Shown here: piece by piece, positions 21,933 to 64,000 of the stretch
Layout: every line of letters starts with the position of its first letter
Numbering within the stretch: the stretch's first letter is position 1
Assembly: GCA_964242255.1 (NCBI GenBank)
Contig: CAXTCO010000001.1
Span: forward strand, 8,539-72,538
Length of the DNA stretch: 64,000 bases
Direction: 5' to 3'
Origin: an uncultured Caulobacteraceae bacterium
Lineage (GTDB): Bacteria > Pseudomonadota > Alphaproteobacteria > Caulobacterales > Caulobacteraceae
The notes under the pieces: generated by a model
Told to the model about the DNA's origin: nothing
Seen by the model: only the letters and a program-made list of their open reading frames with translations
The model's database searches: none
Position numbers and translations under genes: made by a program

Positions 21933-22009
<77 letters not shown>

Positions 22010-30274: not shown

Positions 30275-33200
30275 GGCACCTGCGCTCCCGTGTTGCCGCC
30301 GTAGCGCGGGCCGCCGCCGATCCCGCCGCCGCCGCCGCTTGGCGGCGTATAGGTCGGAGGCGAGTAAGTCGGAGCGCCTCCGCTCCCGCCGCTCGTGCTG
30401 GTCATCGGGGCCTGCAGCCCGATGGGAATGTAGTTATAGGCGTTGTTGACCATTGCGTCGGTAGCCGGCGGGGGTTGCAGGTCACACGCGCCAGTGCTGA
30501 GATTGTAGAAGACCCATGTTTCGCCACCGACGTTGCTGAACGTCTGACTGTTCCACGAATACTTGGTGCCGTTCGTGAGCGTGACGCTGCCTTGCGCGAC
30601 GCTGATCTGGCCGACCCCGGGCGACGACAGCGGGTAAGGCGGAGAGTACACCGCCCCCGTAGCGGTGCTCATCGAATAGGGCGCTTGGCTCCCACCCGTG
30701 AGCCGGCTCTGCGTGGCGAGGGCTCCCTGTCCGCTGATGGCGCCGGCCACGTTGGCGCTTGTCACGTCCGCGCCAGCCTGGCGGGGCCAGTAGTTCGTGA
30801 TGCTCTGGCCGTTGTATTGGTTAAAGAGGTAATCCGCCTTGATCGCCGGCCCGCCGTTGATAACGCCGGACATGAGATCGCGGAAGACCGCAGGCACATT
30901 CGTCAGGCCGTTATACCAATCTGCGAAGCTCTGCGTCGCCAGAGCACCTTGCCCACTGATACCCGAGGCGGTGTGTGAGCTCGTGATGTCCGCCCCCGAC
31001 TGCGCCGGCTGCAAGGCGCTCACCGTCTGTCCGTTCGGATACTGCACCTGACCCGTCGGCAAACTCCCCGCCGTCTGCGTCGCCAAGTTGACGGTGGAAG
31101 ACGTCGCAAGCGCGCTCTGGCCTGTGATCGAGGCGGCGACGTTCGCCCCCGTCTCGTTGGCGAGCCTGGACGACGGCCCCGAGCTGTAGGGAGGCGCGGA
31201 GGTCTGTCCGGGCGACACCTTCGCCATGAACGGCTGGGCGGCGAAGGAGCTGACGTTCCCGGTGCAGCCGGCGGGCACGATGACCCGGACCACCATGAAG
31301 GCGTGGAAGACGCCGCCCGGGATCGTCACGAAGCCGCCGACCCGGCTGTAGTGGCCCTGGATGTCGCCGTTCGAGCTGTAGGGGTCGTTGCCCGTGCCGC
31401 CCGAGCCCGCCACCGCCGACCACACCAGGTTGCCGAAGGGGTCGATGCCGTAGACGATCACCTGACAGCTGCTCGCGCCGTTGGCGTAGGCGCACATGGC
31501 GGAGGCGTAGTAGGTCTCGCCGCCGTTCACCTGGACGGCGTGCTTGTTGACGTGGGTGGAGCTGGTGTCGTTGTTCAGGAGCGTGCTGAACACGTCCACG
31601 TAGCCGCCGGCGGTCAGGCTCTTCCCGCTGGGCGCGTAGACCTGCGCTACGTTGTAGTAGCTGTTCAGGTTCTGGCGGACGAAGCCGCCGCTGAAGCTGT
31701 CGTAGCCCGTCCCGAAGTTCGCGGCAGGGTAGAGGAAGTCGCTGTCCAGGATCTGGTTGCCGCCGCTGGTGGCGACGTTGGCGTTGGCGACCTGGGTGGG
31801 CGTGAGCGAGGTGTTCGCCGCCAGCGCGCTCTGGCCGCTGACCGCCGAGGCGATGTTCACGGCCGTCTGGTCCGCCGCGCGGTCCGGCGGCCCGGGGACG
31901 TAGTTGGGCGGCGAGACCTGGTCGCTGGAGACCTTCGTCAGCATCACCTGGCCGCAGTAGCCCTGGCCGCCCGCGTTGGCGGGGATGTCCACCCGCACCA
32001 GCAGCGTCACATACCAGGCGCCGCTCCCGACGGTGTAGAAGCCGCCCACGCGGCTGTAGTGGCCCTGGAGGTCGCCGTTGCCGGCGTACTGGTCGTTCGC
32101 GACGCCGCCGGTGCCCAGCACCACCTCGCCGACGATCGTTCCGTTGTAGCTCCAGAAGACGGCGTGGACTTCCATGTTCGTCGCGCCGCTCGTGAACGAG
32201 CACATCGCCGAGCCGTAGATCCGGTCGCCCGCGTTCACCTGGAGCGCGTAGCGCTGCAGGTTGTTGGCCGAGTTGCCCGGCAGCGTGTGCAGGACGTCGA
32301 ACACGCCGCCCGTCGAGGAGGCCTGCGACGTGTAGGCGTAGGCGTAGGGCTGGATCCCGTAGGCGTAGTTGCGCTGGATCGAGCCGCCCGTTCCGCCGAG
32401 GCTGTCGTAGCCCGGGCCGAAGCAGGTCAGGCCCTGCCTGAACTCGCTGTCCACCACCGCATTCCCGGCGCTGGTCTGGACATTCGAGTTGAGGACCTGG
32501 GCGACCGTCTGCGTCGCCGTGGCGAGCGCGCCTTGGCCCGCCACGGAGGCGGAGACGGCGTTCGCCGTCTTGTCCGCCGCCACGGTCGCCGGCTGCAGGA
32601 GCTGCGCCGTCTGACCGTTCGTGTAGCTGACCGAGCCGGCCGGCAGCGCGCCAGAGACCTGCGAGCTCAGGCTGACGCTGCCGGTCGTCTGGGTGCCGAG
32701 GTTGACGCTGCTGAGGGTCGCGAGCGCGCCCTGGCCCGAGATCGCTGAGGCGACGTTGGAGCCGGTCTGGTCGGCGGTCCGGTCGGTGGCACCCACCTGG
32801 TAGGGCGGCGCGGCGGTCTGGCCCGCGGCCACCTTGGCGAGGAACGGGCGCGCCGCGGCGGCCTGGCAGTCGCCCGTGCAGCCGGCCGGCACGTTCACCC
32901 GGGCGAGGATCGTGGCGAAGCGGGCGCTGATCGGCACGGTCACGAAGCCGCCGACCCTCGTAAACCACCCGTCGATGTCGCCGTTCAGGCCGTAGAAGTT
33001 CGGGTCGGCGAGGAAGCCGCCGGTGGCGATCGCCGACGAGGGCAGCGCCGCGCCGTTGACGTCCCACCACTCCACCCAGACGGAGACGCCCGTGGCCCCG
33101 TGGCCGTAGAGGGCGTGGACCGAGGCGTAGACGGTGTCGCCGGGGGTGACGACCGCACCGTAGCGGAGCAGGTAGCCGAGACCCTGGTCCTGGCCAGGGT

Positions 33201-36200
33201 TCGTCTGGAAGATGTCGAAGACCTGCGCCGCGGCGGGCGATCCCGCGCCGCCGGGCAGCTTCGCCTGGATGTAGTTGCCGTAGCCGCCGCTGTTGGCGGA
33301 GCGCAACGGGGTGACCGTGGTGGTGGAGTAGCCCGGCCCGTAGGCGAAGCCGTTCCGGATCATGCCGCTGTCGACGATCAGGTTCGAGCCGAGCGCCACG
33401 TTCGCGTTCAGCACGGCGGCGACCGTGGTTGGCGTGGTGGCCAGCGGGCCCTGGCCGGCGAGGGACGCCGCCGTGTTCAGCGAGGTGACGTCGGCGCCCG
33501 CCTGGCCCGGCTGCAGGTTCTGGACCGTGATGCCGCCGGCGTAGGTCACCGAGCCCGCCGGCAGCGAGCCGGTCACCTGCGAGGTCAGGCTGACCGAGCT
33601 CGCCGTGGCGAGCGCGCCCTGGCCGGCGATCGCCGACGCCACGTTGGTGGACGTCTGGTCCGCGTTCGGGACGCCGACGCCCGGCGTCGCAGCGGCCAGC
33701 TCCGTCGCCCCGGCCTGCGCGATCCTGAGCATGGGCGCCTGGATCGTCAGCGACGCGGGACCTGCCCCGCTGGTGAACGCGATCACGTCGAGGGTGGCGT
33801 AAGCGGCGTTCGCCGGGGCGACGGTGAAGCCGCCCGGCCGGATCATGGCCGCGATGCCCCCGGCCGAGTTCGAGAAGGCGGAGAAGTCGGTGATAAACGG
33901 TGCGATCTCTTGCGGAACGATCGACGAGCCGTTCTTGTCCCAGAAGTAGACCTCAGCGTTCACGCGCGAGACGTTGGCGCAGACCGCGTAGGCGCTGGCC
34001 TCGATCTTGTCGCCGGGCTTGCACGGCAGGGCGTAGGACCGGACTTCCTGCTCGTTGGCTGCAATCGCATGGCCGCCGTAGCCTTGACCGATCGCGAACT
34101 CCTTGCCGGCCGCGGGCGTGCCGCTGGTGGCGCGCTGCAGCGCCCCCTTGCCGTTGAGCAGCACGCGCTGCGCCGCGCCGCACGAGTAGGTCTCGTCGTA
34201 GTTCTGGCACCAGAAGGCGCTGACGAACTGGAAGTCGGTGTCGATGAGCGCGTTGCCGCCCGTCGCCGCCGCCAGGTGCACGCCGTCGACGATCTGCTCT
34301 TCCTGCTGGATCGTCAGGTCGCCCGTGACGATCGGTGAGGCGTCGGTGCCGAGCTCGAGCCTGTCTCCGGGGATGCCCCGCACTGAGACGTAGCGGACGC
34401 CGACGACGAAGCCCGCCTGCGCCGGCAGCCCGGTGAGCTGCGTCTGCACGGCGACGTCGTACTGCAGGTCGATCGGCACGGCCTGCGACCACACCGTCGA
34501 TCCCGGGAGCCGGTAGTCGATCAGCGCCCGCGAGACGTTGGGATTGGTGGGCGTCCCCGTGACCAGGATCACTGGCGCTGTGGTGCCGTCGCCGCCGGGC
34601 AGCTCGCCGCCGATCGCCAGCCAGTCGGCCTCGAGCGGGGCCGGGATGTTGAAGATGTCGATCCCGGTCAGCGCCGGGATGGCTGGCGGGCTCGCCGTCT
34701 CGCCGAGGGCGAAGGCGTGCTTCCCGTCCGTCTCGGAGCGCAGAGTCAGCGTGCAGACGAAGGTGGACGGGTCGACCGTCCGGCTCAGGATCAAGCACTT
34801 CTGGTTGTTCAGCCCGTATTCGGGCTCGTTGACCGTGATGCAGTCGCCCGGCCGGTAGCCCATCCAGCGCGGCTTGCAGGGCAGCGTGATCGGTCCGAAC
34901 TCGCGCCCGTTCTCGATGTCGTAGCGCGCCAGCGTCGCCGCCTGGTCGGCCGACTGGCAGAGCGTGTATTCGACCTCCTTGGAGCGCTGGCCGCCGTCGT
35001 GTGCGAAGTAGGCCGTGACCTGGATCGGCGCGGCGGTCGGGACGATGTTCCAGCCCTGCGCCTCCTCGCGGTAGCGCGGCCAGATGGTGTTCGGCGCGGC
35101 CCGCGCGGACTGGATCGCCGCGATCGCCACGTCGCCGATCACGTCCGCTCCGGTCAGGGTGTCGAGGCTGACCTTCGGCGCATCGACCAGGCACGAGATC
35201 TTCGCGCCGAGCGGGATGGGCTGGCCGGAGCCGGCGTTCAGGATGGCGCGCAGCACGTCGCGCTTTCCGTCGGTCGAGTAGATCACGCCGCCGCAGGTCC
35301 AGCCGTGGCTGTCGGCGACGTTGGCGCCCTCGACGAAGGCCGCGACGTCGATGGCCGCCACGGGGGCATGCAGCCCGACCGTCTTCCGGCCGTTCGCGGT
35401 CCGGCCGATGCACCAGGTCAGGCCATGGATGTAGGGGTTCTGGCTGTAGGCCCAGGTCGTCTCGTCGCCGGCGCGCTGCGGCCCGGAGCCGCCGGGGTAG
35501 GTGCTGTCGAGCCGCGGGTCGTAGGCGCTGACGCCCTCGACGACGACCAGCGGCTTGACCTCGCCCGCCGGATACTTGGCGGTGTCGTACTCCATGCTCA
35601 TGATGGTGTGCGACAGGCCAGAGAGCAGGCAGCTCGCGGTCCAGGTGGACGGGATGCCCGAGTGGTTGGCCGGGGTGTCCTTCGACCCCGTGTTCGTGAA
35701 GGTGATGTGCTGGCCGGGCTGGGGCCCGAGGCTCGACTTCCACCACAGGCGGTTCTGGTAGAACGACGTCGAGCCCGGGCCCGTCACCTGCGTGTTGACC
35801 GCGTGCGCCTGGGTCGTCGCGCTCTTCAGCGAGAACTCGGTCCCGACCGAGTAGACGGTGTCGATCGTCAGCGTCTCACCGCCGACGGTGATGGACTGGC
35901 CGCCGCCAAAGTTCTGAACGGAGGCGACGGGCAGCACCGTCGCGCCGGCTGGGACCGCCTGGGAAAGCGACGTCGTCGGCGAGCCCGCGCCCGCGCCCTC
36001 CCCGCCGTCGGCCGTGAAGCTCACCGCGACGTCGTTCGCGGTGAACCCGGAGACGGACTTCACGGGCCCGGCGCACGACAGCACCGTGGTGACCAGCTCG
36101 TACTTGTTGTTGTCGCCCGAAACGTCCTTGAGGACGATCGAGCCGGACGTTCCGGTTCGCCCGATGAGGTAGGGGACCGGCGCCGTCGGGTCGGCCTGCC

Positions 36201-36456
36201 AGTCGATCTGCGTGCCGGCGGCCGTCTGGCCCACTTTGGGCGCGGTCAGGACGGTGGCCACCTCGAGCGCACCGATCGACAGCAGCGCCGGCGTGAGCGC
36301 CATCACCGCGCCCTCGATCGCCAGCTGGCCGAGCACGCCCACGCCGACCGCCGACGCTGCGCCGGCAGCGATCGCGCCGGCGGCCGCGCCGACCGTCGCG
36401 ACGGCGGTGGAGATCGCCCCCACGACGGCGGCGGCGGCGGCGGCGACCATGGGCAT
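30271..36456 (-). CDS. Host-specificity / tail fibre megaprotein (RcGTA g15-like N-terminal two fifths plus four tandem beta-sandwich-like modules)
   Basis: 2061-aa ORF in the position after the peptidase gene. Four paralogous ~190-aa modules. Eight copies of the A(I/V)(A/S)GQ(G/S)ALA(T/A) linker motif. Gly-rich C-terminus. Confidence 0.85.
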   Translation of the reverse strand: MPMVAAAAAAVVGAISTAVATVGAAAGAIAAGAASAVGVGVLGQLAIEGAVMALTPALLSIGALEVATVLTAPKVGQTAAGTQIDWQADPTAPVPYLIGRTGTSGSIVLKDVSGDNNKYELVTTVLSCAGPVKSVSGFTANDVAVSFTADGGEGAGAGSPTTSLSQAVPAGATVLPVASVQNFGGGQSITVGGETLTIDTVYSVGTEFSLKSATTQAHAVNTQVTGPGSTSFYQNRLWWKSSLGPQPGQHITFTNTGSKDTPANHSGIPSTWTASCLLSGLSHTIMSMEYDTAKYPAGEVKPLVVVEGVSAYDPRLDSTYPGGSGPQRAGDETTWAYSQNPYIHGLTWCIGRTANGRKTVGLHAPVAAIDVAAFVEGANVADSHGWTCGGVIYSTDGKRDVLRAILNAGSGQPIPLGAKISCLVDAPKVSLDTLTGADVIGDVAIAAIQSARAAPNTIWPRYREEAQGWNIVPTAAPIQVTAYFAHDGGQRSKEVEYTLCQSADQAATLARYDIENGREFGPITLPCKPRWMGYRPGDCITVNEPEYGLNNQKCLILSRTVDPSTFVCTLTLRSETDGKHAFALGETASPPAIPALTGIDIFNIPAPLEADWLAIGGELPGGDGTTAPVILVTGTPTNPNVSRALIDYRLPGSTVWSQAVPIDLQYDVAVQTQLTGLPAQAGFVVGVRYVSVRGIPGDRLELGTDASPIVTGDLTIQQEEQIVDGVHLAAATGGNALIDTDFQFVSAFWCQNYDETYSCGAAQRVLLNGKGALQRATSGTPAAGKEFAIGQGYGGHAIAANEQEVRSYALPCKPGDKIEASAYAVCANVSRVNAEVYFWDKNGSSIVPQEIAPFITDFSAFSNSAGGIAAMIRPGGFTVAPANAAYATLDVIAFTSGAGPASLTIQAPMLRIAQAGATELAAATPGVGVPNADQTSTNVASAIAGQGALATASSVSLTSQVTGSLPAGSVTYAGGITVQNLQPGQAGADVTSLNTAASLAGQGPLATTPTTVAAVLNANVALGSNLIVDSGMIRNGFAYGPGYSTTTVTPLRSANSGGYGNYIQAKLPGGAGSPAAAQVFDIFQTNPGQDQGLGYLLRYGAVVTPGDTVYASVHALYGHGATGVSVWVEWWDVNGAALPSSAIATGGFLADPNFYGLNGDIDGWFTRVGGFVTVPISARFATILARVNVPAGCTGDCQAAAARPFLAKVAAGQTAAPPYQVGATDRTADQTGSNVASAISGQGALATLSSVNLGTQTTGSVSLSSQVSGALPAGSVSYTNGQTAQLLQPATVAADKTANAVSASVAGQGALATATQTVAQVLNSNVQTSAGNAVVDSEFRQGLTCFGPGYDSLGGTGGSIQRNYAYGIQPYAYAYTSQASSTGGVFDVLHTLPGNSANNLQRYALQVNAGDRIYGSAMCSFTSGATNMEVHAVFWSYNGTIVGEVVLGTGGVANDQYAGNGDLQGHYSRVGGFYTVGSGAWYVTLLVRVDIPANAGGQGYCGQVMLTKVSSDQVSPPNYVPGPPDRAADQTAVNIASAVSGQSALAANTSLTPTQVANANVATSGGNQILDSDFLYPAANFGTGYDSFSGGFVRQNLNSYYNVAQVYAPSGKSLTAGGYVDVFSTLLNNDTSSTHVNKHAVQVNGGETYYASAMCAYANGASSCQVIVYGIDPFGNLVWSAVAGSGGTGNDPYSSNGDIQGHYSRVGGFVTIPGGVFHAFMVVRVIVPAGCTGNVSSFAAQPFMAKVSPGQTSAPPYSSGPSSRLANETGANVAASITGQSALATSSTVNLATQTAGSLPTGQVQYPNGQTVSALQPAQSGADITSSHTASGISGQGALATQSFADWYNGLTNVPAVFRDLMSGVINGGPAIKADYLFNQYNGQSITNYWPRQAGADVTSANVAGAISGQGALATQSRLTGGSQAPYSMSTATGAVYSPPYPLSSPGVGQISVAQGSVTLTNGTKYSWNSQTFSNVGGETWVFYNLSTGACDLQPPPATDAMVNNAYNYIPIGLQAPMTSTSGGSGGAPTYSPPTYTPPSGGGGGIGGGPRYGGNTGAQVP

Positions 36457-36460
36457 GCGC

Positions 36461-36880
36461 TCAGGTCCTCCAGGCGGTCAGGAAGCGACGCGGCGCGAGC
36501 ACGCGCGCCTGGTCCGTGTGGAAGCCGAGCACCCGGCCGTTACCGAGGGCTACGCACAGGGCCGGTGCGCCGTCCTCGGCGGGCAGCGCCACCAAGTCGA
36601 GCGGCAGGGTGGCCGCCGGCGGGATGCGGTCGAGGCCCTGGCCGTCGAGGGCCTGCTCGAGATCCGCGTAGCCCAGCCGGCGGAGCGCGCGCACCGACCC
36701 CGCCGGCGAGGTGTAGCGCTGGGCGTCCTCGAGCTGCGAGGAGCGGCCGCGCTGCAGCAGGGCGGCGTGCGCCAGGCGGGCGCAGTCGCGCTCCCCCCAA
36801 CGGAAGGGCGCCGCGATCCAATCGGCCAGCAGGGCCTGCGCGCCCGCGACGCGCCGCTCGAGGTCGGTCGGCTCGCGCAT
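36461..36880 (-). CDS. Phage cell-wall peptidase, NlpC/P60-like (RcGTA g14 position)
   Basis: ATG 36880 (MREPTDLERRV), 139 aa. FRWGERDCARLAH candidate catalytic Cys. Call is by position and motif. Confidence 0.55.
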   Translation of the reverse strand: MREPTDLERRVAGAQALLADWIAAPFRWGERDCARLAHAALLQRGRSSQLEDAQRYTSPAGSVRALRRLGYADLEQALDGQGLDRIPPAATLPLDLVALPAEDGAPALCVALGNGRVLGFHTDQARVLAPRRFLTAWRT

Positions 36881-52575: not shown

Positions 52576-52776
52576 TCAGCGGCGCGCAGCGCGCCAGGCG
52601 CGACCCGCGGGCTCGAAGCCCTCAAGCCGCATGGACAGGGCGCCGAGCTCCGACGCGATCGCGTCCAGCTCGACGTGGTAGGCCTCGCCTTGGCGCAGCT
52701 TGCGGGTGAGGCCGCGGAGACGGCGCTGCAGGTCCGCGGCGATCGCTGCCGGATGGGCGTCGGCCAGCTCAGCCAC
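52576..52776 (-). CDS. Small coiled-coil protein downstream of recombinase
   Basis: GTG 52776 overlapping the last codons of the recombinase gene, 66 aa. Confidence 0.4.
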   Translation of the reverse strand: MAELADAHPAAIAADLQRRLRGLTRKLRQGEAYHVELDAIASELGALSMRLEGFEPAGRAWRAARR

Positions 52777-53629
52777 GGATGAACGCCGCGGAGGTCTCGC
52801 CCGGCTTGGCGTGCGCGTAGCGCGTGGTGGTGGCCAGCGAGGCGTGGCCGAGGCCTTCCCGCACCGTCTGGATCGGCGCGCCATTGTCGAGCGCGTGGCT
52901 GGCGTGGCTGTGGCGAAGCCAATGCGGCGAGGCGGCGTCCGTCGCGCCGGCGCGCCGCGCGGCGCGCTTCACCACCCGCCACACGCATTTACGGTCCAGG
53001 CCGCGGCCGCTGCGGGCGGGGACGACGGGCGAGTCTGGCAGCGGCGCCGCGGTGAGCGCGGCGAGCTCGCGCCACAGGTCGGCGGGCACGCCGACGCGCC
53101 GCTCCTTACCGCCCTTGCCGAGCACCTTCGCCGAGCCGCCCTTCTTCTCGGTGCCGGCCATGTCGCGCCAGCGGAGACCGGCGGCCTCCGACGCGCGCAG
53201 GCCGCAGACGTAGACGAGGCGGAGGAGCGCGCGGCTGCGGGCGTCGGGCTCGGCGGCGATCATGCGCTTCACCGTCGTCTCCGACAGGATCCGCTCGGCC
53301 GAGGTCTCGGTCGCCTTCTCGAGCTGGTAGGCGGCGCCCGGGTTCATTGGCATGGCGCCGAGCCGGTGGACGAAGGTCAGGAACGACTTCACCGCGGCCA
53401 GGCGGCGCGCTCGCGTCGCGTGCGCTGCGCCGGCCATGCTCTCGGCCCACAGCTGCAGGTCGGGCAGCGTCGTCGCGGCGATCGGCTTGGTGGTGAACAC
53501 CAGGAAGGCGCGGGCGTCGGCCTCGTAGGCGAGCGCCGTGTTTGCGCTCTTCCCGTGCAGCCACATGCGCAGCAGCATGTCGTCGGGGCTCGCTGTCGGC
53601 GTAAATCCTTGCGCGGGAACGACCTGCAT
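52769..53629 (-). CDS. Tyrosine recombinase / phage integrase family (short, XerC/D-like)
   Basis: 286-aa ORF. Catalytic residues in GLRASEAAGLRWRD, HWLRHSHAS, LGHASLATTTRYAH. Confidence 0.88.
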   Translation of the reverse strand: MQVVPAQGFTPTASPDDMLLRMWLHGKSANTALAYEADARAFLVFTTKPIAATTLPDLQLWAESMAGAAHATRARRLAAVKSFLTFVHRLGAMPMNPGAAYQLEKATETSAERILSETTVKRMIAAEPDARSRALLRLVYVCGLRASEAAGLRWRDMAGTEKKGGSAKVLGKGGKERRVGVPADLWRELAALTAAPLPDSPVVPARSGRGLDRKCVWRVVKRAARRAGATDAASPHWLRHSHASHALDNGAPIQTVREGLGHASLATTTRYAHAKPGETSAAFIRG

Positions 53630-53667
53630 GCCGTTCTCCCAGCGCTGGAGAGCGTCCCATAACTGCT

Positions 53668-53753
53668 CTTATGGGTCGCCCTGGAACTCTTATGTTCCAT
53701 TTCGGCCGGTTCAGGGCCGCGTTATTGTTCCGCCTCGGCGGGACTTATGTTCC
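53668..53753 (+). repeat. Four phased direct repeats (C)TTATGTTCC-type in AT-richer spacer upstream of recombinase gene
   Basis: CTTATGGGTC 53668-53677, CTTATGTTCC 53689-53698, GTTATTGTTCC 53721-53731, CTTATGTTCC 53744-53753. Spacings 21, 33 and 22 nt. GGAAC-N6-GTTCC at 53683-53698. Confidence 0.7.
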
Positions 53754-56927: not shown

Positions 56928-57217
56928 ACCTCAGGATTCGGGCAAGCGCCGTCGCGCAGCCAGAGCACGAATCAGGAACAGAGAAGATCAGGGGCGGGAG
57001 CGCCCCGAAGCGGAGGGCGAGGCCGGCCTGACTGGACGCGCCGGCGGAGAGCATCCCCTACCCGCCTCCCCGCCGCGTCAATTGACGGGGGACTCGACTC
57101 CGGCTCCGGCCGGGTGTTCCCATTGTGTTCACGGGGGCACAGAACGCGCCAAGGGTGGACCGAGTGGACGAAGTAGCGGCGGGCGGGGTGCCGGAGTCTC
57201 CGCAGGGCTGGGAAGCG

Positions 57218-57427
57218 ATGGCGCTCCTGGCCGTCACGACGGCGGTGGTGCGAGCCCTGCCGTCATGGTCGCGCCGGAAGGTCCGGCGGCGCCTGGCGAC
57301 GGTGGCGGAGGACTGGGAGCGGCGGGAGCCGGAGGACGTCGCCGATCGCGCCATGCGTGCGGCGGCGGGCCGTTTCGTCCGGCCGCTGCTGGCGCAGCTC
57401 GAGTCGGAGGAGGCCGAGAGGCGGTAG
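57218..57427 (+). CDS. Small hypothetical protein (start uncertain; ORF opens at 57125)
   Basis: Third-position GC becomes strong from ATG 57218 (MALLAVTTAVV..). Convergent with the HTH gene. Confidence 0.35.
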   Translation: MALLAVTTAVVRALPSWSRRKVRRRLATVAEDWERREPEDVADRAMRAAAGRFVRPLLAQLESEEAERR

Positions 57428-57434
57428 CGGCCGC

Positions 57435-57689
57435 TCAACACGAGCAGACCGCGGCGGCCGGCGGCAACGGGCGGCCGGCCTCGGCGATGAGGTGGGCGAG
57501 GTCGGGGCGCAACTCGGCAGCGCGGACCTCGCCGCCCGACCAGGCCTGGATCTTCAGGGCGAGCTCAAGCGGGCAATCGACGGCACCGTTCTCGATGTCG
57601 CAGATCCGACCCTTGCTCTTGAGCCCCAGCTCGTGAGCGAGCTGCTCCTGAGAAAGGCCCCGGTCTCGCCGGAGATCGCAGAGCTTCAT
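57435..57689 (-). CDS. XRE-family HTH regulator (Cro/CI-type), leftward arm of genetic switch
   Basis: ATG 57689 (MKLCDLRRDRGLSQEQLAHELGLKSKGRICDIENG). The track ORF opens at TTG 57698. Confidence 0.8.
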   Translation of the reverse strand: MKLCDLRRDRGLSQEQLAHELGLKSKGRICDIENGAVDCPLELALKIQAWSGGEVRAAELRPDLAHLIAEAGRPLPPAAAVCSC

Positions 57690-57698
57690 GAGCGCCAA

Positions 57699-57786
57699 GG
57701 TTCCGGGTTTGGGAACTCCGAGTCAAGGCGCCCCGATCCGCTCCTGGGGGGCGAACGCCGTCGCGCGGGTTCTCAAAATAGGAACG
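57699..57786. promoter_or_regulatory. Divergent switch region with two operator-like palindromes
   Basis: GGTTCC-N7-GGAACT at 57699-57717. GGTTCT-N7-GGAACG at 57768-57786, abutting GTG 57786. Confidence 0.6.
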
Positions 57787-58103
57787 TGGCCGACTCAACC
57801 GAGCACGACTGGCACCTGAAGGCTTGGATCAAGCACTTCGGCAAACGGCAGGCTTCGCTTGTTAACGAGCTCGGGTGGTCAAAGAACCGCGCCAGCATCG
57901 TATTCAATGGTGGAACGCCCTACCGACGCGAGACGGTGAACGAGATCGCCACCTGGCTCGGCGTTGAGCCATTCGAACTTCTGATGCCGCCAGCCGAGGC
58001 GCTCGCCCTTCGCCGCCTACGAGAGACGGCCAGGATTATCGCTGACGGGAGTTTTCCATCATCGCCCGCCACCTCTCAACCTCCGAAAGGTCGATCGAGA
58101 TAA
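57786..58103 (+). CDS. XRE-family HTH regulator, rightward arm of genetic switch
   Basis: GTG 57786, 105 aa. QASLVNELGWSKNRASIVFNG HTH. AT-richer than surroundings. Confidence 0.7.
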   Translation: MADSTEHDWHLKAWIKHFGKRQASLVNELGWSKNRASIVFNGGTPYRRETVNEIATWLGVEPFELLMPPAEALALRRLRETARIIADGSFPSSPATSQPPKGRSR

Positions 58104-58500
58104 CGGTGCCGATGTCCTTGTCCGTGAGGCCGAGTTGATCCTTGAGGTGATCGGCGGTGGCCAGTTGGACGAGCGCGTCGCTTCGGTCCACGTTCGCCTC
58201 AAGCGTCGCCCCCTGCGATCCGATGGACTTGAACACCTCGAACGCCTCTTGGGCTCGCTCCCATCGCGCATACTGGAGGCCAAGGGCAAAGGGCTTGAAG
58301 TCGGAGTGATCTCCCTCGTAGCTCAGAAGCTTTGCTCCGAAGCACCGATCCCTTAGCGCCGACGATTGGCCGATTGGGCAGCTCTCACCGGCTCGCCAGC
58401 CCTTCCCGATCTCCGAGCGGACCGTAGGCTTATTCTCCACGGGCGCATCCAACGGCGTCTGCAGCGCCAGGAGCGCGGCCGTGGCGAGGATCATCAGCAT
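58036..58500 (-). CDS. Secreted hypothetical protein (moron-like)
   Basis: 154-aa ORF. N-terminal signal-like MLMILATAALLALQ. Visibly AT-richer. The 3' end overlaps the 3' end of the rightward HTH gene by 68 nt. Confidence 0.55.
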   Translation of the reverse strand: MLMILATAALLALQTPLDAPVENKPTVRSEIGKGWRAGESCPIGQSSALRDRCFGAKLLSYEGDHSDFKPFALGLQYARWERAQEAFEVFKSIGSQGATLEANVDRSDALVQLATADHLKDQLGLTDKDIGTVISIDLSEVERWRAMMENSRQR

Positions 58501-58554
58501 GGCGTGGCCTCCAGTCCCGGCAGTCAGCCAGCGATCGGCTGAGCACGGAAGGAG

Positions 58555-58607
58555 GGTTCCCGGGTTCGGAACTTTGCGCTTGACGCCAGGTTCCCTTTAT
58601 CGGAACC
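58555..58607. promoter_or_regulatory. Two operator-like palindromes flanking a TTGACG -35-like hexamer, upstream of the rightward early operon
   Basis: GGTTCC-N7-GGAACT 58555-58573. TTGACG 58580-58585. Perfect GGTTCC-N7-GGAACC 58589-58607. Confidence 0.6.
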
Positions 58608-58711
58608 ATGTGCCTCGCCCACCCGGGCCGGGGCCAACCGCGAGACTTCGCGGGGGCGACTCTCCTCCGGCCTAACCCCGCCTCGGGTGGGCGCCCTTCG
58701 CGGAGCGCTCC

Positions 58712-58999
58712 ATGGCCGACGGCACCACCTTTCAGGCTGACTTCGAGGCGAGCCCCGAGGTCATGACGGCCGCCGCCCAGGGGCGGCTCAAGAGCTTCCT
58801 GGAGCGGATCGAGAAGCTGGAGGAGGACCGCGCGGCGGTCGGCGAGGACCTGAAGGAGGTCTACGCCGAGGCCAAGGGCGAGGGCTTCGACACCAAGACG
58901 ATCCGCGCCGTCGTCCGCCTGCGCAAGCAGGACAAGGTGAAGCGCGACGAGGCGCAGGCGCTCCTCGACCTCTACCTCTCCGCGATCGGCGGCCTGTGA
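58712..58999 (+). CDS. gapR: GapR-like nucleoid-associated protein (DUF2312 / UPF0335)
   Basis: 95 aa. LKSFLERIEKLEEDRAAVGEDLKEVYAEAKGEGFDTKTIRAVVRLRKQDKVKRDEAQALLDLYLSAIG closely parallels Caulobacter GapR as I recall it. Confidence 0.8.
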   Translation: MADGTTFQADFEASPEVMTAAAQGRLKSFLERIEKLEEDRAAVGEDLKEVYAEAKGEGFDTKTIRAVVRLRKQDKVKRDEAQALLDLYLSAIGGL

Positions 59000-59328
59000 T
59001 GGGCGGCCCCGTCGACAAGGTCTCGCGCGGCATGCACCGCCTCGCGAAGGAGACCCGGTCCCAGATGGCCGTGGTCGTCTTCCGGCCCGCACCGGACGGC
59101 TCGCTCAACGTCGCCGTCGAGTCCACGGGCGGGCTCTCCTCCTCGGCGCTGGAGATCGCCGCCCACGCCCTCCTGACCTACATCGTCGAGGCGATCGGCG
59201 AGGACGCCGACTGCGGCGAGTGCCCGAACTGCCAGGCGGTGGCCAAGCGCACCGCGGGCGCCGCCGCTCTCCTCGAGGAGGCCGGCTTCCACAAGACGCC
59301 CACGACTTCGGCCGGGGGGGTCCATTGA
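58996..59328 (+). CDS. Hypothetical phage protein
   Basis: 110-aa ORF. GTG 58996 or ATG 58999 overlapping the gapR-like stop. CGECPNC motif. Confidence 0.55.
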   Translation: MMGGPVDKVSRGMHRLAKETRSQMAVVVFRPAPDGSLNVAVESTGGLSSSALEIAAHALLTYIVEAIGEDADCGECPNCQAVAKRTAGAAALLEEAGFHKTPTTSAGGVH

Positions 59329-59747
59329 TGCCCGGCCCCGACGATGCGGCCGACCTCTGGCCGAACAAGTTCGGCCTCACCCCCGCCGACCGCACGCGCA
59401 TGGAGGCCCACTCCGACGTGCTGCTCGAGATCGCCGCGGCGGCCATCCGCCAGGCGAACCCCGGCGAGCCGGTGGACGACGCCCAGGCGGCCTACGTCGC
59501 CGGCTCCGTCCTGGCCCGCCGCGCGGCGCTGACGCGCGCCGAGCTGGCGGAGAACGCGTCGCTCCTGCTGACCGACGCCGCCCTGACGGTCGGTGCGCTG
59601 CGGGAGGACGGCCCCGACCAGCTGATCGTCCACGCCGAGCGCTGCCGCCAGGCCCTCCGGGCCATGTGGAGGAGCGCATGCGACCGCCTTGAGCAGCAGC
59701 TCGCCGAGACCGCGCCGGCCGACGCCCGCCCAGAGGCGACGCACTGA
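59328..59747 (+). CDS. Hypothetical phage protein
   Basis: ATG 59328 shares one base with the upstream stop. 139 aa (MPGPDDAADLWPNKFGLTPADR..). Confidence 0.55.
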   Translation: MPGPDDAADLWPNKFGLTPADRTRMEAHSDVLLEIAAAAIRQANPGEPVDDAQAAYVAGSVLARRAALTRAELAENASLLLTDAALTVGALREDGPDQLIVHAERCRQALRAMWRSACDRLEQQLAETAPADARPEATH

Positions 59748-59908
59748 TGCGCGCGCTCTTCGCCCTGGTGATCCTGGCGGGTTGGCTCGCCTGCGGCCTG
59801 CTCGCCCTGGCGGCCATCCGCCACCCGCGAAGCCGCGGCGAGCGCGTGGTGGGCTGGGTGGGCGGGCTCGCGCTCATCGCGACCATCGTCCTCGGAGCGC
59901 TCGGATGA
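59747..59908 (+). CDS. Small two-TM membrane protein
   Basis: 53 codons, translated by hand: MRALFALVILAGWLACGLLALAAIRHPRSRGERVVGWVGGLALIATIVLGALG. Coupled at both ends. Below the ORF-track size cutoff. Confidence 0.45.
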   Translation: MRALFALVILAGWLACGLLALAAIRHPRSRGERVVGWVGGLALIATIVLGALG

Positions 59909-60285
59909 CGCCGGCGCCCCTCCCCGCCGTCGTGGGCTCGTCCGACGCGCGGTGGACCCGCTTCGCGCGCGCCTACGCCAACTCCCTCGAGGTGCTCGCC
60001 GGCGCGATCGGCCGCCACGACGGCTGCAACATGCTCGGCCGGGACATCCTCGCGTCCCGCTCGCCCGACGCGCTCCGCTACACGCGCCAGGCCGCCGACG
60101 TGCTGGACGACGTGCGCTTGGGCGCGGGCGAGCTCGCCGCGGCCGCACGCCGCGCCGTCGCGGACAACGTCCTGTTCGACGGCCCGCACGATCGGCCCGA
60201 GGCGCTGGACGACCACGAGCCGACGCGTCGGCTGTTGGACCTGGTCGTCGCGTGCGGGGCGCAGATGGCCGAGGCGCTCTCGTGA
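59905..60285 (+). CDS. Hypothetical phage protein
   Basis: ATG 59905 (ATGA overlap), 126 aa. Strong third-position GC. Confidence 0.55.
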   Translation: MTPAPLPAVVGSSDARWTRFARAYANSLEVLAGAIGRHDGCNMLGRDILASRSPDALRYTRQAADVLDDVRLGAGELAAAARRAVADNVLFDGPHDRPEALDDHEPTRRLLDLVVACGAQMAEALS

Positions 60286-60494
60286 GGCGCGCCGCCTGGA
60301 CGGTGGTAGAGCGCAACCGCCTCGCCCGCGTGGTCGCGCGCGGCATGTTCGGTCGGCACCCGCCGCCGCCCGGGCTGGAGCCGCAGGGGATCGACTTCGA
60401 CGTCGTGCGCGCCGTTGTCGCCGCCGGCTACCGCCCGCCTCAGCGCCGGCACCCGCGCCGCACAGACCCGCGGCGCCTGGGAGCGGTGTCGTGA
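60282..60494 (+). CDS. Hypothetical phage protein
   Basis: GTG 60282 (GTGA overlap), 70 aa. Confidence 0.45.
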   Translation: MRRAAWTVVERNRLARVVARGMFGRHPPPPGLEPQGIDFDVVRAVVAAGYRPPQRRHPRRTDPRRLGAVS

Positions 60495-60823
60495 TCGCCG
60501 TCCCCGGTGAGGCGATGGCCTGGGCCCGGGAGTGCCTCGCCGCCGGCGACGCGCCGGAGGAGCTGGCGATGGCGCTCGGCCTCAGCGAGGAGCAGCTGCT
60601 CTGCGCTGCGGGCGTCCACACGCCGATGACGCCGCGCCAGCGCGAGGCCGCGTCCCTGCGCGCCGCCGGCCTCACAGACGCCGAGGCCGCGGGGCGGATG
60701 GAGCGCTGCACGGCGGCCGCCGTCTCCAACCTGCTCAGGACGGCGCGCTCGAACGGCTACGCCATCGCCCTGCGGTCGCCCGGGCGTCAGCCCGACATCG
60801 AAGTCCTGGGAGCCGGCCGGTGA
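60491..60823 (+). CDS. LuxR/sigma-70 region 4-type HTH protein
   Basis: GTG 60491 (GTGA overlap), 110 aa. TPRQREAASLRAAGLTDAEAAGRMERCTAAAVSNLLRTARSNG. Confidence 0.55.
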   Translation: MIAVPGEAMAWARECLAAGDAPEELAMALGLSEEQLLCAAGVHTPMTPRQREAASLRAAGLTDAEAAGRMERCTAAAVSNLLRTARSNGYAIALRSPGRQPDIEVLGAGR

Positions 60824-61230
60824 ACGCGGCCGCCCGCCTCGCCCCGGTCGGGTCCGGCCGTGCCCATGCTCTGGCCAACCACCTCCGTCCCTGGCGCAAG
60901 CGCACCCGCGCCAACGACATCACCATCGAGGCCGAGCCGTTCGTCGCCGGCGGTCGGCCCCGGGTGGTGGCCCGCGTGCCGCGCACCGCCGACACTTATG
61001 CCGACCACGCCCTGGCCGACACGATCGTCGCCTCACTCGAGATCCAGGAGGCCGTCCGCGCGCTGCTGCGCGACGGCGCGGTCTCGCGCGATGGCGAGTT
61101 CACCTACCTGCCGCCCCCGCGCGCCGGCGCGGACGCGATCGCGCGGCTCCAGAAGCTCCTCGAGGCTGCCCCCCCCCCCCTGCTGGGGCGGTGCCTCGTC
61201 TGCAAGGTGAGGATCGCCGATGACGCGTGA
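60820..61230 (+). CDS. Hypothetical phage protein containing an in-frame C12 tract
   Basis: GTG 60820 (GTGA overlap), 136 aa. The C12 run encodes AAPPPL. C-terminal CLVC. Confidence 0.5.
   Translation: MNAAARLAPVGSGRAHALANHLRPWRKRTRANDITIEAEPFVAGGRPRVVARVPRTADTYADHALADTIVASLEIQEAVRALLRDGAVSRDGEFTYLPPPRAGADAIARLQKLLEAAPPPLLGRCLVCKVRIADDA
61169..61180 (+). repeat. Poly(C) tract, 12 nt
   Basis: Counted directly in the sequence. Confidence 0.95.
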
Positions 61231-61367
61231 CGACGAGCTGGTGCTCGCCTGGACCGACGCCGGCTGGAACCCCGACAAGATCGACCGCGCGCTCCTGCGC
61301 GGCCGCGGCTGGGCGCGCCGGCGGCTCGCGCGCCTGCGCCCCGCTCCAGAGCCGGCGGAGGCCGACG
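61220..61367 (+). pseudogene. Coding segment with start but no nearby stop (frame-disrupted gene or frameshift junction)
   Basis: ATG 61220. About 49 codons of strong third-position GC (MTRDDELVLAWTDAGWNPDKIDRALLRGRGWARRRLARLRPAPEPAEADD). Codon bias then collapses in this frame although it stays open to 61843. Confidence 0.4.
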
Positions 61368-61571
61368 ATGCTCTACGACTGGGAGGCGAAGCGCTCGGGC
61401 GCGAACATCACGATCTCGGGGAAGGACGAGACGGGGCAGGTCCGCGCGATCACGGGCGTCGAGAGGGTGGCGCTGACGGCGAACGGGCTGGTGGCCGTGA
61501 CGCTCGCGCGCAAGTTCCACCCGCTGGCGACGACGTCCGGTCCGCCGCAGGCGACGTCGAAGGCGGCCTGA
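61368..61571 (+). CDS. Small hypothetical phage protein
   Basis: ATG 61368, 67 aa (MLYDWEAKRSGANITISGKDETGQVRAITGVERVALTANGLVAVTLARKFHPL..). Good codon bias. +1 frame relative to the preceding segment. Confidence 0.5.
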   Translation: MLYDWEAKRSGANITISGKDETGQVRAITGVERVALTANGLVAVTLARKFHPLATTSGPPQATSKAA

Positions 61572-61581
61572 CGGCCGCTCG

Positions 61582-61623
61582 GCCTTCGCCCCCCCCCCCC
61601 CCTCACATGGAGGGGGCGAAGGC
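61582..61623 (+). repeat. Poly(C) tract of 14 nt (61589-61602) embedded in a 12-bp GC hairpin
   Basis: GCCTTCGCCCCC 61582-61593 pairs with GGGGGCGAAGGC 61612-61623. The loop contains the remaining Cs and ATG 61607. Confidence 0.9.
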
Positions 61624-61749
61624 GCCGCGGCGGCGATCCCGCCCGGCTGCAGCAGCACGAGGTCGAGCCCGGTCGCGGCGTCCCGAACGATTGGGATCGG
61701 GCCCTCTTCGAGCCCTGGGCCGACCGCAAGGCTCGTCGCCTCGCGCAGC

Positions 61750-61917
61750 GTGGGGGAGCTCGGCCGTGACCTCCCCGCGCGCGCCGTCCCGTCCGCCAAG
61801 CTGCGCTTCGCTCGTTGGTTCATCGACGCGAGGTGGTCGGTGAACGCGACCGCCGCCCTCTTCGACCTCGCGCCGGCGGACCTGGCCGCCGCCCTCTCCC
61901 TGCAGGAGGCGGCGTGA
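61750..61917 (+). CDS. Small hypothetical protein (start uncertain)
   Basis: Strong codon bias from ~61768 to the stop at 61917 (..LRFARWFIDARWSVNATAALFDLAPADLAAALSLQEAA). GTG 61750 is the only in-frame start. Confidence 0.35.
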   Translation: MGELGRDLPARAVPSAKLRFARWFIDARWSVNATAALFDLAPADLAAALSLQEAA

Positions 61918-62117
61918 CCTGCCGCCTCGCCCCACGAACCGGAGACGCCGTTGTGACCCCGCTCGCCTCGCCGCGCTGCGCCCCGCCCACGCCCCGCTCC
62001 GCCTGGCTCTCCGCCTGGCTGACCAGTCTCAGCGCACGCCCCGCGGCGCACGTGGGCGTCTTCTTCGGCGTGGGCATGGCCGCGGCGCTGCTGCTGATCG
62101 GCGGAGGGCTGCTCTGA
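61914..62117 (+). CDS. Small membrane protein
   Basis: GTG 61914 (GTGA overlap), 67 aa. C-terminal TM VGVFFGVGMAAALLLIGGGLL. Confidence 0.45.
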   Translation: MTCRLAPRTGDAVVTPLASPRCAPPTPRSAWLSAWLTSLSARPAAHVGVFFGVGMAAALLLIGGGLL

Positions 62118-62434
62118 TGTTCGATCCGCTTTCAGGTCAGGCCGCCGACCAGCTCGATATCGAGGAGTTGGCGCGCACAGCCTACGCCAAGCGCCTGCGG
62201 CTCACGACCAGCAGCGGCCTCAGCGGGACAGCTCACCTGGGTGGCGATCCCGACAAGTTCGTGCACAGCCTTCTCCGCCTCGCCGCCATCGGTCAGGCGT
62301 TCGTCGGCGCCTCGGCCGCAGAGCCTGGCCTGACGCTTCGCAGCGTCCGTGACCGTGTGGCCCGCATCGGCGACGAGCGCGTGGTGGCGCTACTGGAAGG
62401 CCGGTCCGTCGTCGCCGCGCGGGAGGCGCGCTGA
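62117..62434 (+). CDS. Hypothetical phage protein
   Basis: 105-aa ORF. Start shares one base with the upstream stop. Confidence 0.55.
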   Translation: MFDPLSGQAADQLDIEELARTAYAKRLRLTTSSGLSGTAHLGGDPDKFVHSLLRLAAIGQAFVGASAAEPGLTLRSVRDRVARIGDERVVALLEGRSVVAAREAR

Positions 62435-62997
62435 TGCGCACCGGCCGGCCCGACCTCGACGCCATGCTCCGCGTGGCGAGCATCCCCGCCGAGGAGCCCT
62501 GCTTCATCCTCCGCGGGCAGGACGACTGCGCGGTGGAGGCGGTGCGCTTCTACGCCGAGCTGGTGCTGGCGCGCGGCGGCTCGGCCGCCATGGCCGAGGC
62601 CGCCCTGCAGCAGGCCGACGCGATGTCGTGCTGGCCGACGAAGAAGCTCCCCGATGTTGATCTGCCCGAGCACCAGCGCCGGCTGCTCGAGTACCAGCAC
62701 AGCCGCCGTGGAGACGTTCGCTCGGGCGACCTCCCCGTTGCCCATGCCTATGACCAGGGGCGCATCGCGGGCGTGGCGCAGGAGCGGCGCGGAGCCGCCA
62801 GCGTGCTCCTCCTCGAGCACGAGGCGCTCGCCGCCGGGCGGCGCGCCTACATGGCGCATCGCGCGGGCGTCCAGGCCGGCAAGTCCAGAGTCGGGAAGCT
62901 CGCCACCTGGGAGGAGCTTCCCGAAGTCGCGCAAGCGAAGTGGGCGGACACCGCCCGCGCGACTTGGCCGCAGCTCGCGCAGGACGCCGCAGCATGA
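62434..62997 (+). CDS. Hypothetical phage protein
   Basis: 187-aa ORF, coupled at both ends. Confidence 0.6.
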   Translation: MRTGRPDLDAMLRVASIPAEEPCFILRGQDDCAVEAVRFYAELVLARGGSAAMAEAALQQADAMSCWPTKKLPDVDLPEHQRRLLEYQHSRRGDVRSGDLPVAHAYDQGRIAGVAQERRGAASVLLLEHEALAAGRRAYMAHRAGVQAGKSRVGKLATWEELPEVAQAKWADTARATWPQLAQDAAA

Positions 62998-63587
62998 TGC
63001 TCCGCGCCTACCCGCTCGACTGGCCGCCGTCGCAACCGCGGACCGAGCGCCTGAACATCGGCGCCCCGTACGCGTGCAAGGACACGCTGGGCACCGCCTC
63101 GGATCGGATCGACCGCGCACTGGACCTCTCCGGCTTCGGCGCCGTGGTGCTGTCCACCGACATCGTCACCCGGGGCCGCCAGTACGCGACCGAGAAGATG
63201 GCCAGCGACCATGGCGCCGCGCTCGCCTTCGAGTTCCAGGGGCGGCGCTACCACGTGGGCCAGGACGCGTGGGCCCGGCCCCTCCACAACGTCTGGAGCC
63301 TCGCGCTGATGGCCGAGGGACTGCGCCAGACGGTGCGCCACGCCGGAGACGCCCTGTTCGCCCGCATGATCGCGGGCTTCGCGGCGCTCCCCCCACCTCC
63401 GGCCGGCGGCGTCCTCGCGCCGATCGCGGCGCACCAGGTGCTCGGCGTCGCTCCGGACGCGCCTCGGGAGGTGATCGAGGCGGCCTACCGTGCGCTCGCG
63501 CGCAAGCACCACCCCGACCAGGGCGGCTCGGCCGCTGGCATGGCCGCCCTCAACGCCGCCCGCGACCAGCTGCTCCGAGAGGCCTGA
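62994..63587 (+). CDS. J-domain (DnaJ-like) fusion protein
   Basis: ATG 62994 (ATGA overlap), 197 aa. Unrecognised ~135-aa N-domain plus C-terminal HQVLGVAPDAPREVIEAAYRALARKHHPDQGG with the HPD tripeptide. Confidence 0.75.
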   Translation: MMLRAYPLDWPPSQPRTERLNIGAPYACKDTLGTASDRIDRALDLSGFGAVVLSTDIVTRGRQYATEKMASDHGAALAFEFQGRRYHVGQDAWARPLHNVWSLALMAEGLRQTVRHAGDALFARMIAGFAALPPPPAGGVLAPIAAHQVLGVAPDAPREVIEAAYRALARKHHPDQGGSAAGMAALNAARDQLLREA

Positions 63588-63883
63588 TGCCCACCGCCCG
63601 CCCGAAGCCGCAGTTCACCCCGCGCCAGGTCGACCAGCTGGCGCAGCTGCTCGCCGCCGGCGCCCTGAGCCACGAGGACGCCAAGCACCAGTTCGATGCC
63701 GGGATGAGCGGCTGCAGCCCGCTGGTGCTGGGCAAGCTGCGCGACATGGACTTGGCCGACAGCCGCGTCATGCGCCCGCGCGGCGGTTCGCAGGTCACGG
63801 CCTACTGGCTGACGCCGGCGGGCGCGCGGACCGCGCGCAGGCTCGCCGGATCACCCCCCCCCCCCCGGAGGGCGGTTCGATGA
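63587..63883 (+). CDS. Hypothetical phage protein, apparently truncated after a C13 tract
   Basis: 98 aa ending GSPPPPRRAVR. The frame reached by removing one C has strong codon bias and ends at 63932 in a GTGA overlap with the next gene. Confidence 0.5.
   Translation: MPTARPKPQFTPRQVDQLAQLLAAGALSHEDAKHQFDAGMSGCSPLVLGKLRDMDLADSRVMRPRGGSQVTAYWLTPAGARTARRLAGSPPPPRRAVR
63854..63866 (+). repeat. Poly(C) tract, 13 nt
   Basis: Counted directly in the sequence. Confidence 0.95.
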
Positions 63884-63928
63884 CGCGCCCTGGCCCCAGC
63901 TCGAGCTCTTCCCGGAGCTGAACGCTGC

Positions 63929-64000
63929 GTGACGTCCGTCCTCGCCCCGAGTCCACCAGCCGACCTCGCGCCCGCCGCGGTCCCGGCCGGCGCGTGGCGG
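63929..64000 (+). CDS. 5' end of a further phage gene running off the window
   Basis: GTG 63929, then 23 codons with strong third-position GC (VTSVLAPSPPADLAPAAVPAGAWR). Open at the window edge. Confidence 0.4.
   Translation, partial: MTSVLAPSPPADLAPAAVPAGAWR

Follow-up and report, generated by a model that had tools for sequence, protein, structure and literature searches.

Poly-C tracts at gene ends in the early operon of an alphaproteobacterial prophage as candidate switches of C-terminal protein modules

Introduction

Homopolymeric G or C tracts are found at contingency loci of Neisseria, Campylobacter and Haemophilus, where they are hypermutable by slipped-strand mispairing. Programmed slippage or frameshifting gives two C-terminal forms of one protein in the case of dnaX (tau and gamma) and of the transposases of insertion sequence (IS) elements. 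An example of simple-sequence contingency is provided by the C-tracts of Bordetella pertussis (PMC1891110). Among phages, hypermutable polyG tracts of the Campylobacter Fletchervirus group are on record (Sorensen et al. 2021, as cited in 10.1101/2025.10.21.683753), and 'phage contingency loci' have been described for T2/T4 (10.1101/2025.10.21.683753). The present work concerns a prophage contained in a window of 64,000 nucleotides (nt; 64 kb, 71.5% G+C), which is the whole stretch of DNA that was analysed and comes from an uncultured Caulobacteraceae bacterium (contig CAXTCO010000001.1). The rightward early operon of this prophage carries three long runs of C, here designated tracts 1, 2 and 3, and it is proposed with moderate confidence that they are hypermutable tracts switching the C-terminal modules of small proteins, that is, a variant of the contingency locus.

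The locus resembles bacterial contingency loci in that long pure homopolymers set the reading frame, their lengths vary by strain, and orthologues occur both in and out of frame. In contingency loci, however, the tract is near the 5'-end of the gene, giving ON/OFF expression, or in the promoter, as for the C-stretches of Bordetella fim, whereas the prophage tracts are located in C-terminal linkers or at gene junctions and would exchange a tail or a domain instead of silencing a gene. With Fletchervirus and T2/T4 the prophage shares phage-encoded tracts, frame variants of phage proteins and the presence of several tracts per genome. The tracts of those virulent phages are given there as 6–11 nt long and mostly in receptor-binding, defence-evasion or other genes, while the runs described here are 9–15 nt long and cluster, beside GapR- and GcrA-like genes, in the early regulatory operon of a phage that is temperate and has GC-rich alphaproteobacterial hosts. 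As in dnaX and the IS elements, a homopolymer marks a domain boundary and a protein exists with or without its C-terminal module, but run length and direction of the shift are fixed and conserved in those systems and both vary among the relatives of this prophage. The prophage differs from the known systems in its temperate early regulatory operon, the GC-rich alphaproteobacterial host, the four to five long tracts at conserved sites, and the C-terminal modules that would be switched, among them a candidate clamp-binding peptide and a domain fusion.

Results

Poly-C runs in the window and in related prophages

A preliminary description of the window had reported uninterrupted runs of C on the + strand at 61169–61180 (C12, tract 1), 61589–61602 (C14, tract 2) and 63854–63866 (C13, tract 3), and all three were found with these positions and lengths. 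It had also reported no homopolymer longer than about 7 nt elsewhere; indeed, the next longest is a G7 (59314–59320), no other homopolymer of at least 8 nt occurs in the 64 kb, and C-runs elsewhere in the window reach a maximum of 6. The placement of the runs on the sense strand of a rightward prophage operon was likewise correct, the prophage being a genuine one with structural genes, a divergent repressor and an end made up of a GcrA-like gene, an integrase and a tRNA. The C12, C14 and C13 runs are far beyond chance. The number of C/G runs of at least 12 nt expected in the window is 0.37 under an independent-base model and 0.035 under a first-order Markov model, none was produced in 200 simulations each of second- and third-order models, and the longest C/G run in 777 kb of unrelated loci is 10. 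All three also have the repeat length of contingency loci (about 8 nt or more of G/C), as have the runs of 9–15 nt in relatives.

The window is continued by L047, a Logan contig of run ERR5055691 that is 100% identical to window positions 58975–64000, all three tract lengths included. All operon proteins are singletons at 90% identity; they are known from the source sample only, near-identical strains for comparison being absent, and L047 is therefore a second assembly of that sample and not an independent one. It disclosed a fourth run, C9 (L047:5485–5493, about window coordinate 64459), some 460 nt past the window end, where it separates the TGA of a DUF1153 gene from the ATG of the GcrA-like gene. 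This run is present only in L047. A GTG overlapping the DUF1153 stop (as GTGA) is in frame with the GcrA-like ATG across the C9. The G7 mentioned above is also at a gene junction, a few bases before a TGATG stop/start overlap (59324–59328), where it could serve as a Shine-Dalgarno sequence.

Relatives of the operon were recovered through protein A as five short metagenome contigs from other samples (L048–L052), through protein H as a contig of 8.9 kb (L057), and through the H-family protein P0092 as a further contig (L058). In these seven further contigs from independent samples the tracts occupy the same sites with differing lengths. Counting the window, the pure runs measure 12, 13, 12, 10, 9 and 9 nt at the tract 1 site, and 13, 11 and an interrupted 12 nt are found at the tract 3 site; three of the relatives have very low coverage (1.3x, 2.4x and 2.8x), and exact lengths may be off by one there. 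The clade holds in total 14 C-runs of at least 9 nt in 23.4 kb, all on the sense strand, versus none in 37.9 kb of outgroup early regions (66–71% GC) and none in the other 61 kb of the window. No homopolymer of at least 7 nt is present in L053 (66% GC) and L054 (71% GC), the outgroup early regions with a homologue of D0, a small open reading frame (ORF) behind tract 2. An extra C10 inside the GcrA-like gene is found in L057 and only there. Two of the contigs end in a C-run (L048:1479–1493, C15, and L049:1–6, C6), and such breaks fit either length heterogeneity or a loss of read quality at the tracts.

Against the possibility that such tracts are common genome-wide, raised in the preliminary description, stands their absence from the rest of the window and from the outgroup prophages, and its alternative of an assembly-error hotspot is contradicted by the C-runs at the same sites in seven further independent contigs. 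As for short interrupted runs in orthologous prophages, most relatives have pure runs of varying length, while the run of L050 is interrupted and that of L058 partly so.

Tract 1 and the tail of protein A

Gene A (60820–61230, + strand), supported by a frame plot of G+C at third codon positions (GC3), encodes a protein of 136 amino acids (aa) with five homologues of 60–85% identity. A fold search with protein A was uninformative (predicted local distance difference test, pLDDT, 62). Tract 1 is located 17 codons ahead of the gene A stop, which is just beyond the ATG of gene B, and codes in frame for A-P-P-P, giving a PPP linker ahead of a conserved tail with a CxxC motif (LLGRCLVCKVRIADDA, 61180–61230, + strand). 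This tail is attached only at the right length of tract 1. It is in frame in the window (C12), in L048 (C13), in L049 (C10) and in L050, where the interrupted sequence ccgccggcgccg represents a stable version; L051 (C12), L052 (C9) and L057 (C9) have it out of frame by -1. Among the pure-tract loci, 3/6 have the tail in frame and 3/6 out of frame. Synonymous/nonsynonymous codon differences in the tail, summed over all pairs of 6 loci (L052 was left out, the anchor pattern having been missed), are 34/35 in the frame of the module versus 13/55 and 8/58 in the other two frames. At L057:383–1390 the C9 together with the loss of the TGA (GTCAGG for GTGAGG) makes gene A read into gene B as one ORF, which was not reported by the gene caller.

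Tract 3 and the candidate clamp-binding tail of protein H

Gene H, in its C13 reading (63587–63883, + strand), encodes 98 aa. The predicted winged-helix domain (AlphaFold pLDDT 91) has a PadR/TubR/MarR-like fold (probability ~1.0, template modelling score 0.5–0.6) and ends at residue 87, just ahead of tract 3, which is reached at codon 90. H has 64 homologues, and members of the family normally stop at the end of the winged-helix domain. With C13 the protein ends in PPPPRRAVR and stops on ATGA, while C12 would join H to a downstream tail (GGRFDDAPWPQLELFPELNAA, 63867–63932, + strand) that is in another frame than H at C13 and is conserved in L057 (GGRFDDRDWIQLELFP) and L058 (GGRFDDDWPQLELFA). 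In 3/3 loci the stop of this tail overlaps the GTG start of the next gene (63929 in the window) as GTGA, and in the relatives translation of the switched tail is coupled to that of the GcrA-like gene. The window (C13) has the tail out of frame by +1 and L057 (C11) by -1; in L058, where the site is an interrupted 12 nt (cccaCCCCCCCC), it is in frame with H (P0092), and it is therefore predicted to be a genuine C-terminus of H. Synonymous/nonsynonymous differences among the three loci are 5/4 in the frame of the tail versus 4/7 and 0/10.

The sequence QLELF (63897–63911, + strand), present in the tail in 3/3 loci (window, L057 and L058), matches the beta-sliding-clamp consensus Q-L-x-L-F, for which only 2 matches occur in 128,000 six-frame residues of the window. 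It is followed by 1, 1 and 6 residues before the stop and preceded by a P/G-rich linker behind the winged-helix domain. The clamp-binding motif is usually C-terminal and unstructured (PMC4549789), and the placement of QLELF in three loci, behind a Pro/Gly linker and 1–6 residues short of the stop, is like that in proteins carrying this motif (PMC4549789). At the level of a motif match, QLELF thus looks like a candidate clamp-binding peptide.

The stop used by H at C13 is not a dead end. Its ATGA contains the ATG of a serine-rich mini-ORF of 13 codons (MTRPGPSSSSSRS, 63880–63921, + strand), which has its own Shine-Dalgarno sequence; length and position of the mini-ORF are the same in the window, L057 and L058, and the Shine-Dalgarno sequence is conserved. 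A first view of tract 3 as simply OFF at C13 was revised for this reason. The three states of tract 3 would therefore give three tails and three ribosome hand-overs to the next gene, and not a plain ON/OFF switch. A 10-bp palindrome (AGCTCGAGCT) is found inside the mini-ORF at 63898–63907.

Tract 2 between gene B and D0

Gene B starts with a conserved domain of 49 aa resembling a helix-turn-helix (HTH; 61220–61367, + strand), with homologues in L048, L049 and L057. From 61220 its ORF meets no stop until 61843, so that 207 codons are open across gene C, in another frame, and across tract 2; the frame likewise runs without a stop into the C-run in L048 (C15), L049 (C12) and L057. That the frame stays open across gene C is trivially explained by the GC3 of this gene, which is ~1.0. 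Gene C (61368–61571, + strand) encodes 67 aa and has a homologue at 946–1158 in L057; its TGA (61569–61571) is 17 nt ahead of tract 2 and, in the window and L057, in the same frame as D0.

Tract 2 was first taken as simply intergenic, which does not hold as it abuts a conserved ORF without a start codon and stands between this and the open B frame. The ORF in question, D0 (61605–61769, + strand), encodes a small-protein domain that is conserved (…HEVEPGRGVPNDWDRALFEPWADRKARR…); its coding signal is high, but no start codon follows the tract. Elsewhere the D0 family consists of widespread stand-alone proteins of 55–75 aa with their own ATG; in this clade the start codon has been lost, and D0 is found behind the tract. 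From the B frame D0 is reachable in the window (C14) only with C13 or C16, and in L057 (C12) the join needs 11 or 14. L049 has C12 at the B/D0 junction with D0 behind it and needs 13 or 10, and in L048 the contig ends with the C15 at the end of B. A shift of -1, -1 and +1 is thus required in the three loci where the junction can be read. The comparison of window and L057 gave synonymous/nonsynonymous differences of 13/6 in the module frame versus 2/18 and 1/17 for the D0 core, and of 3/0 versus 0/2 and 0/2 for the first 27 nt after the tract (TWRGRRRRG).

The tract is accompanied by two hairpins on the + strand. In the first (61562–61579, GGCGGCC-TGAC-GGCCGCT) the loop contains the gene C stop codon, TGA, and the second (61582–61623) has a 12-bp stem formed by GCCTTCGCCCCC and GGGGGCGAAGGC, with the rest of tract 2 in the loop. 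The fold z-score of the region 61562–61623 is -3.9, and the same two-hairpin topology is present at tract 2 of L057. A scan found no intrinsic terminator at the tract 2 hairpin, the downstream sequence being GCCGCGGCGG with no T-run, and the hairpins matched no Rfam family.

Other explanations for the arrangement of D0 were discarded. ATG 61607 opens a frame other than that of D0 in both the window and L057, and this frame lacks conservation. D0 and the following D1 are not one gene broken at a G5 (61752), as L049 and L057 have them as separate overlapping genes. Ribosome bypassing across tract 2, judged by eye, lacks a GCC landing codon in the D0 frame.

Organization of the prophage

The terminase, portal, protease, major capsid, adaptor and tape-measure genes of the prophage are on the minus strand. 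A gene for a repressor-like HTH protein (57435–57698, minus strand) is divergent from the + strand operon, the first gene of which is GapR-like (58712–58999). Past the window end, L047 contains a gene for 105 aa, the DUF1153 gene, the GcrA-like gene, a tyrosine integrase gene and the 3'-end of a tRNA. As the operon reads on through the GcrA-like gene, the integrase and the tRNA, the tracts belong to an early operon oriented toward int and the attachment site, in the manner of lambda pL. No sigma-70-like promoter was found in a scan of 57000–64000 for that single promoter type.

The phage terminase is ~65% identical to terminases of Rhizobium phages, and the flanking nuo and proS genes resemble the Sinorhizobium and Paracoccus versions. 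These flanking genes and the presence of GapR and GcrA mark the host as alphaproteobacterial. Pfam and PHROG gave no function for A, B, C, D0, D1, H and I. Comparison of the DnaJ-domain protein with genome contigs returned only distant DnaJ matches and no orthologous prophage, and scans of viral and metagenome contigs with the proteins, the protein A alignment and conserved DNA patterns returned no match.

Some further features were observed. Homologues of three alphaproteobacterial chromosome or cell-cycle factors are encoded by the prophage, namely GapR (58712–58999), a DNA methyltransferase (24874–25836) and GcrA (L047:5496–6047). There are two tyrosine recombinase genes, one within the element beside the packaging genes (52769–53668, minus strand) and one at the tRNA end (L047:6306–7547); the region may comprise two neighbouring elements or a single phage that has an additional recombinase. 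A tRNA-Asp gene (21933–22009) is near the far end of the structural genes, and the second tRNA 3'-end is at the integrase side, in L047. An ORF of 2,069 codons (30271–36477, minus strand) is found among the tail genes.

Discussion

It had been anticipated in the preliminary description that reading frames in this region depend on tract length, and this stands: behind the tracts there are conserved, frame-specific modules, in or out of frame according to the length. The classical forms of switching that it had in mind, a gene turned ON or OFF or a promoter acting as volume control, do not apply, as the tracts are at gene 3'-ends and in linkers, where they alter tails and fusions. They also do not look like spacer elements of promoters: the one promoter type scanned for, sigma-70-like, is absent from 57000–64000, and the operon is tightly coupled, with each tract within an ORF or at its end.

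In the proposed mechanism, which is somewhat better than an even prospect, one prophage clade would keep slippage-prone, inherited tracts in the Pro-rich linkers of several small early-operon proteins. Each tract would part a conserved N-terminal portion from a downstream module readable in one of three frames: the CxxC tail of A behind tract 1, the start-less D0 behind B at tract 2, and the QLxLF-bearing tail of H at tract 3. The gain or loss of one C would decide whether the module is attached, and at tracts 1 and 3 the run length would in addition fix the position of the ribosome's stop with respect to the start of the following gene. By analogy with contingency loci, the length would change at a high rate through slipped-strand mispairing, and each lysogen population would be a mixture of protein-isoform states. 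Slippage of RNA polymerase or of the ribosome on the same runs would probably add to the mixture.

The codon differences set out above indicate purifying selection on the modules in one particular frame, including at loci where the tract sets them out of frame, and the relatives appear to occur in both the in-frame and the out-of-frame state. After tracts 1 and 3, moreover, each of the three frames reaches a stop within 50 and 66 nt, respectively, beside the start of the downstream gene, a property shared by only 0.6–0.9% of operon positions, for which the median distance is 532 nt. The rarity of such quick stops suggests that all three frames after these two tracts have been seen by selection and are used in nature. 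No such buffering exists at tract 2, the three frames of which run for 167–315 nt and lead to D0, to a frame that is not conserved, or to D1.

Several observations weigh against the switching of modules by tract length. The lengths were taken from assembled contigs, and the sole other copy of the exact prophage, L047, derives from the same sample with identical lengths. Coverage is low in three of the relatives, with lengths possibly miscalled by one, and the out-of-frame alleles of tract 1 all deviate by -1, as under-calling of the run would be expected to produce. At tract 2, 0/3 loci have a length that fuses B with D0, and, since D0 is in the frame of the gene C stop codon in two loci, D0 may be expressed by another route, for which read-through of this stop is a candidate. 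The frame signal of the tail behind tract 3 is modest (5/4 versus 4/7), and the mini-ORF overlaps it. Last, tracts near gene 3'-ends, where frameshifts harm least, also fit tolerance.

Recoding at the level of expression, in which slippage of RNA polymerase and/or a shift of tRNA-Pro on CCC-C during polyproline stalling would be the main mechanism and yield a fixed mixture of isoforms, is considered unlikely, though it ranks first among the alternatives. It would account for modules that are under purifying selection even where the DNA length puts them out of frame, for the shift that the B-to-D0 join needs in 3/3 loci, and for the conserved hairpin at tract 2. The known +1 shift of tRNA-Pro on CCC-C (PMC7577736 and PMC4519876) also speaks in its favour. 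Programmed sites, on the other hand, usually have one length and one direction of shift, while the runs here are of 9–15 nt and the required shift differs in sign (at tract 3, -1 in the window and +1 in L057). In roughly one of two tract 1 alleles the tail is in frame without any shift, and the hairpin at tract 2 contains the tract instead of being placed downstream as a frameshift stimulator. A single frame arrangement with a constant shift, as in programmed slippage, is not shared by the relatives. As lengths and shift directions vary among them, recoding fits poorly as the sole mechanism.

Somewhat less probable again is that the tracts are non-adaptive by-products, Pro-linker codons expanded by slippage and persisting wherever any frame ends soon. 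Such an origin would agree with the location of the tracts at gene 3'-ends, in linkers or between genes, with the frame-buffered positions of tracts 1 and 3, with the gain and loss of sites (C9 before the GcrA-like gene only in L047, C10 inside it only in L057), and with the interrupted, stable version in L050. It is opposed by the local codon usage: Pro is encoded by CCG in 53% and by CCC in 41% of cases, and the four other PPP runs of the window are in mixed codons, so that a pure C-run is not the default coding of Pro. Despite this preference for CCG, the runs have remained pure at three orthologous sites in relatives with only 44–85% protein identity. Conserved functional modules follow directly behind the tracts, and outgroup phages of equal GC are devoid of such runs. 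The 3'-positions of the tracts are explained by this reading, but not their purity or the conserved modules behind them.

It is very improbable that the runs act as RNA cis elements in the early transcript, be it as loading sites for Rho, as a terminator, or as sites for a poly(C)-binding factor, even though all of them are C on the sense strand, the operon has a lambda pL-like layout toward int, and a hairpin follows the gene C stop. A Rho utilization (rut) site extends over ~70–80 nt that are C-rich and G-poor, whereas the C/G ratio at the tracts is 1.15–1.37 against an operon median of 1.11, and the flanks without the run are not C-rich and G-poor at all (C 37–40 versus G 41–43 per ~100 nt). 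The hairpin has neither a T-tail nor an Rfam match, and the conserved frame-specific modules would be left unexplained. Least probable of all is a sequencing or assembly artefact (homopolymer errors or poly-G read tails), since, for all that exact lengths of 12–15 nt are error-prone in short reads, some relatives are at 1–3x coverage and two contigs end in C-runs, eight contigs, obtained from different samples through three assembly pipelines, have runs at the same sites, the assembly k-mers exceed the runs in length, the reading frames carry on correctly across the runs, and tract 2 is paired with the G-rich arm of its hairpin.

The switching of C-terminal modules by hypermutable tracts is therefore preferred over these alternatives. 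A wider form of it, in which the four to five poly-C tracts would operate as combinatorial switches of the clamp peptide, the CxxC tail and the HTH-D0 fusion, and in which lysogens would take many proteome states that differ in how they engage host replication and the cell cycle, is a doubtful extension. To our knowledge, no clamp-binding motif has been reported as gated by a homopolymer tract.

Known homopolymer loci belong to host-adapted bacteria and, recently, to a few virulent phages, and mostly turn surface or receptor-binding functions ON or OFF. A practical warning follows from the present case, in which several genes (D0, B, and the L057 homologue of A) were overlooked by gene callers or given a wrong end: the frames around such tracts are not safe from a single assembly. 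If switching at a high rate is true, one lysogen lineage would keep yielding a DNA-binding protein with or without a candidate clamp tether, and likewise two small domains fused or not. This would be a new kind of prophage bet-hedging, directed at the interaction with host replication.

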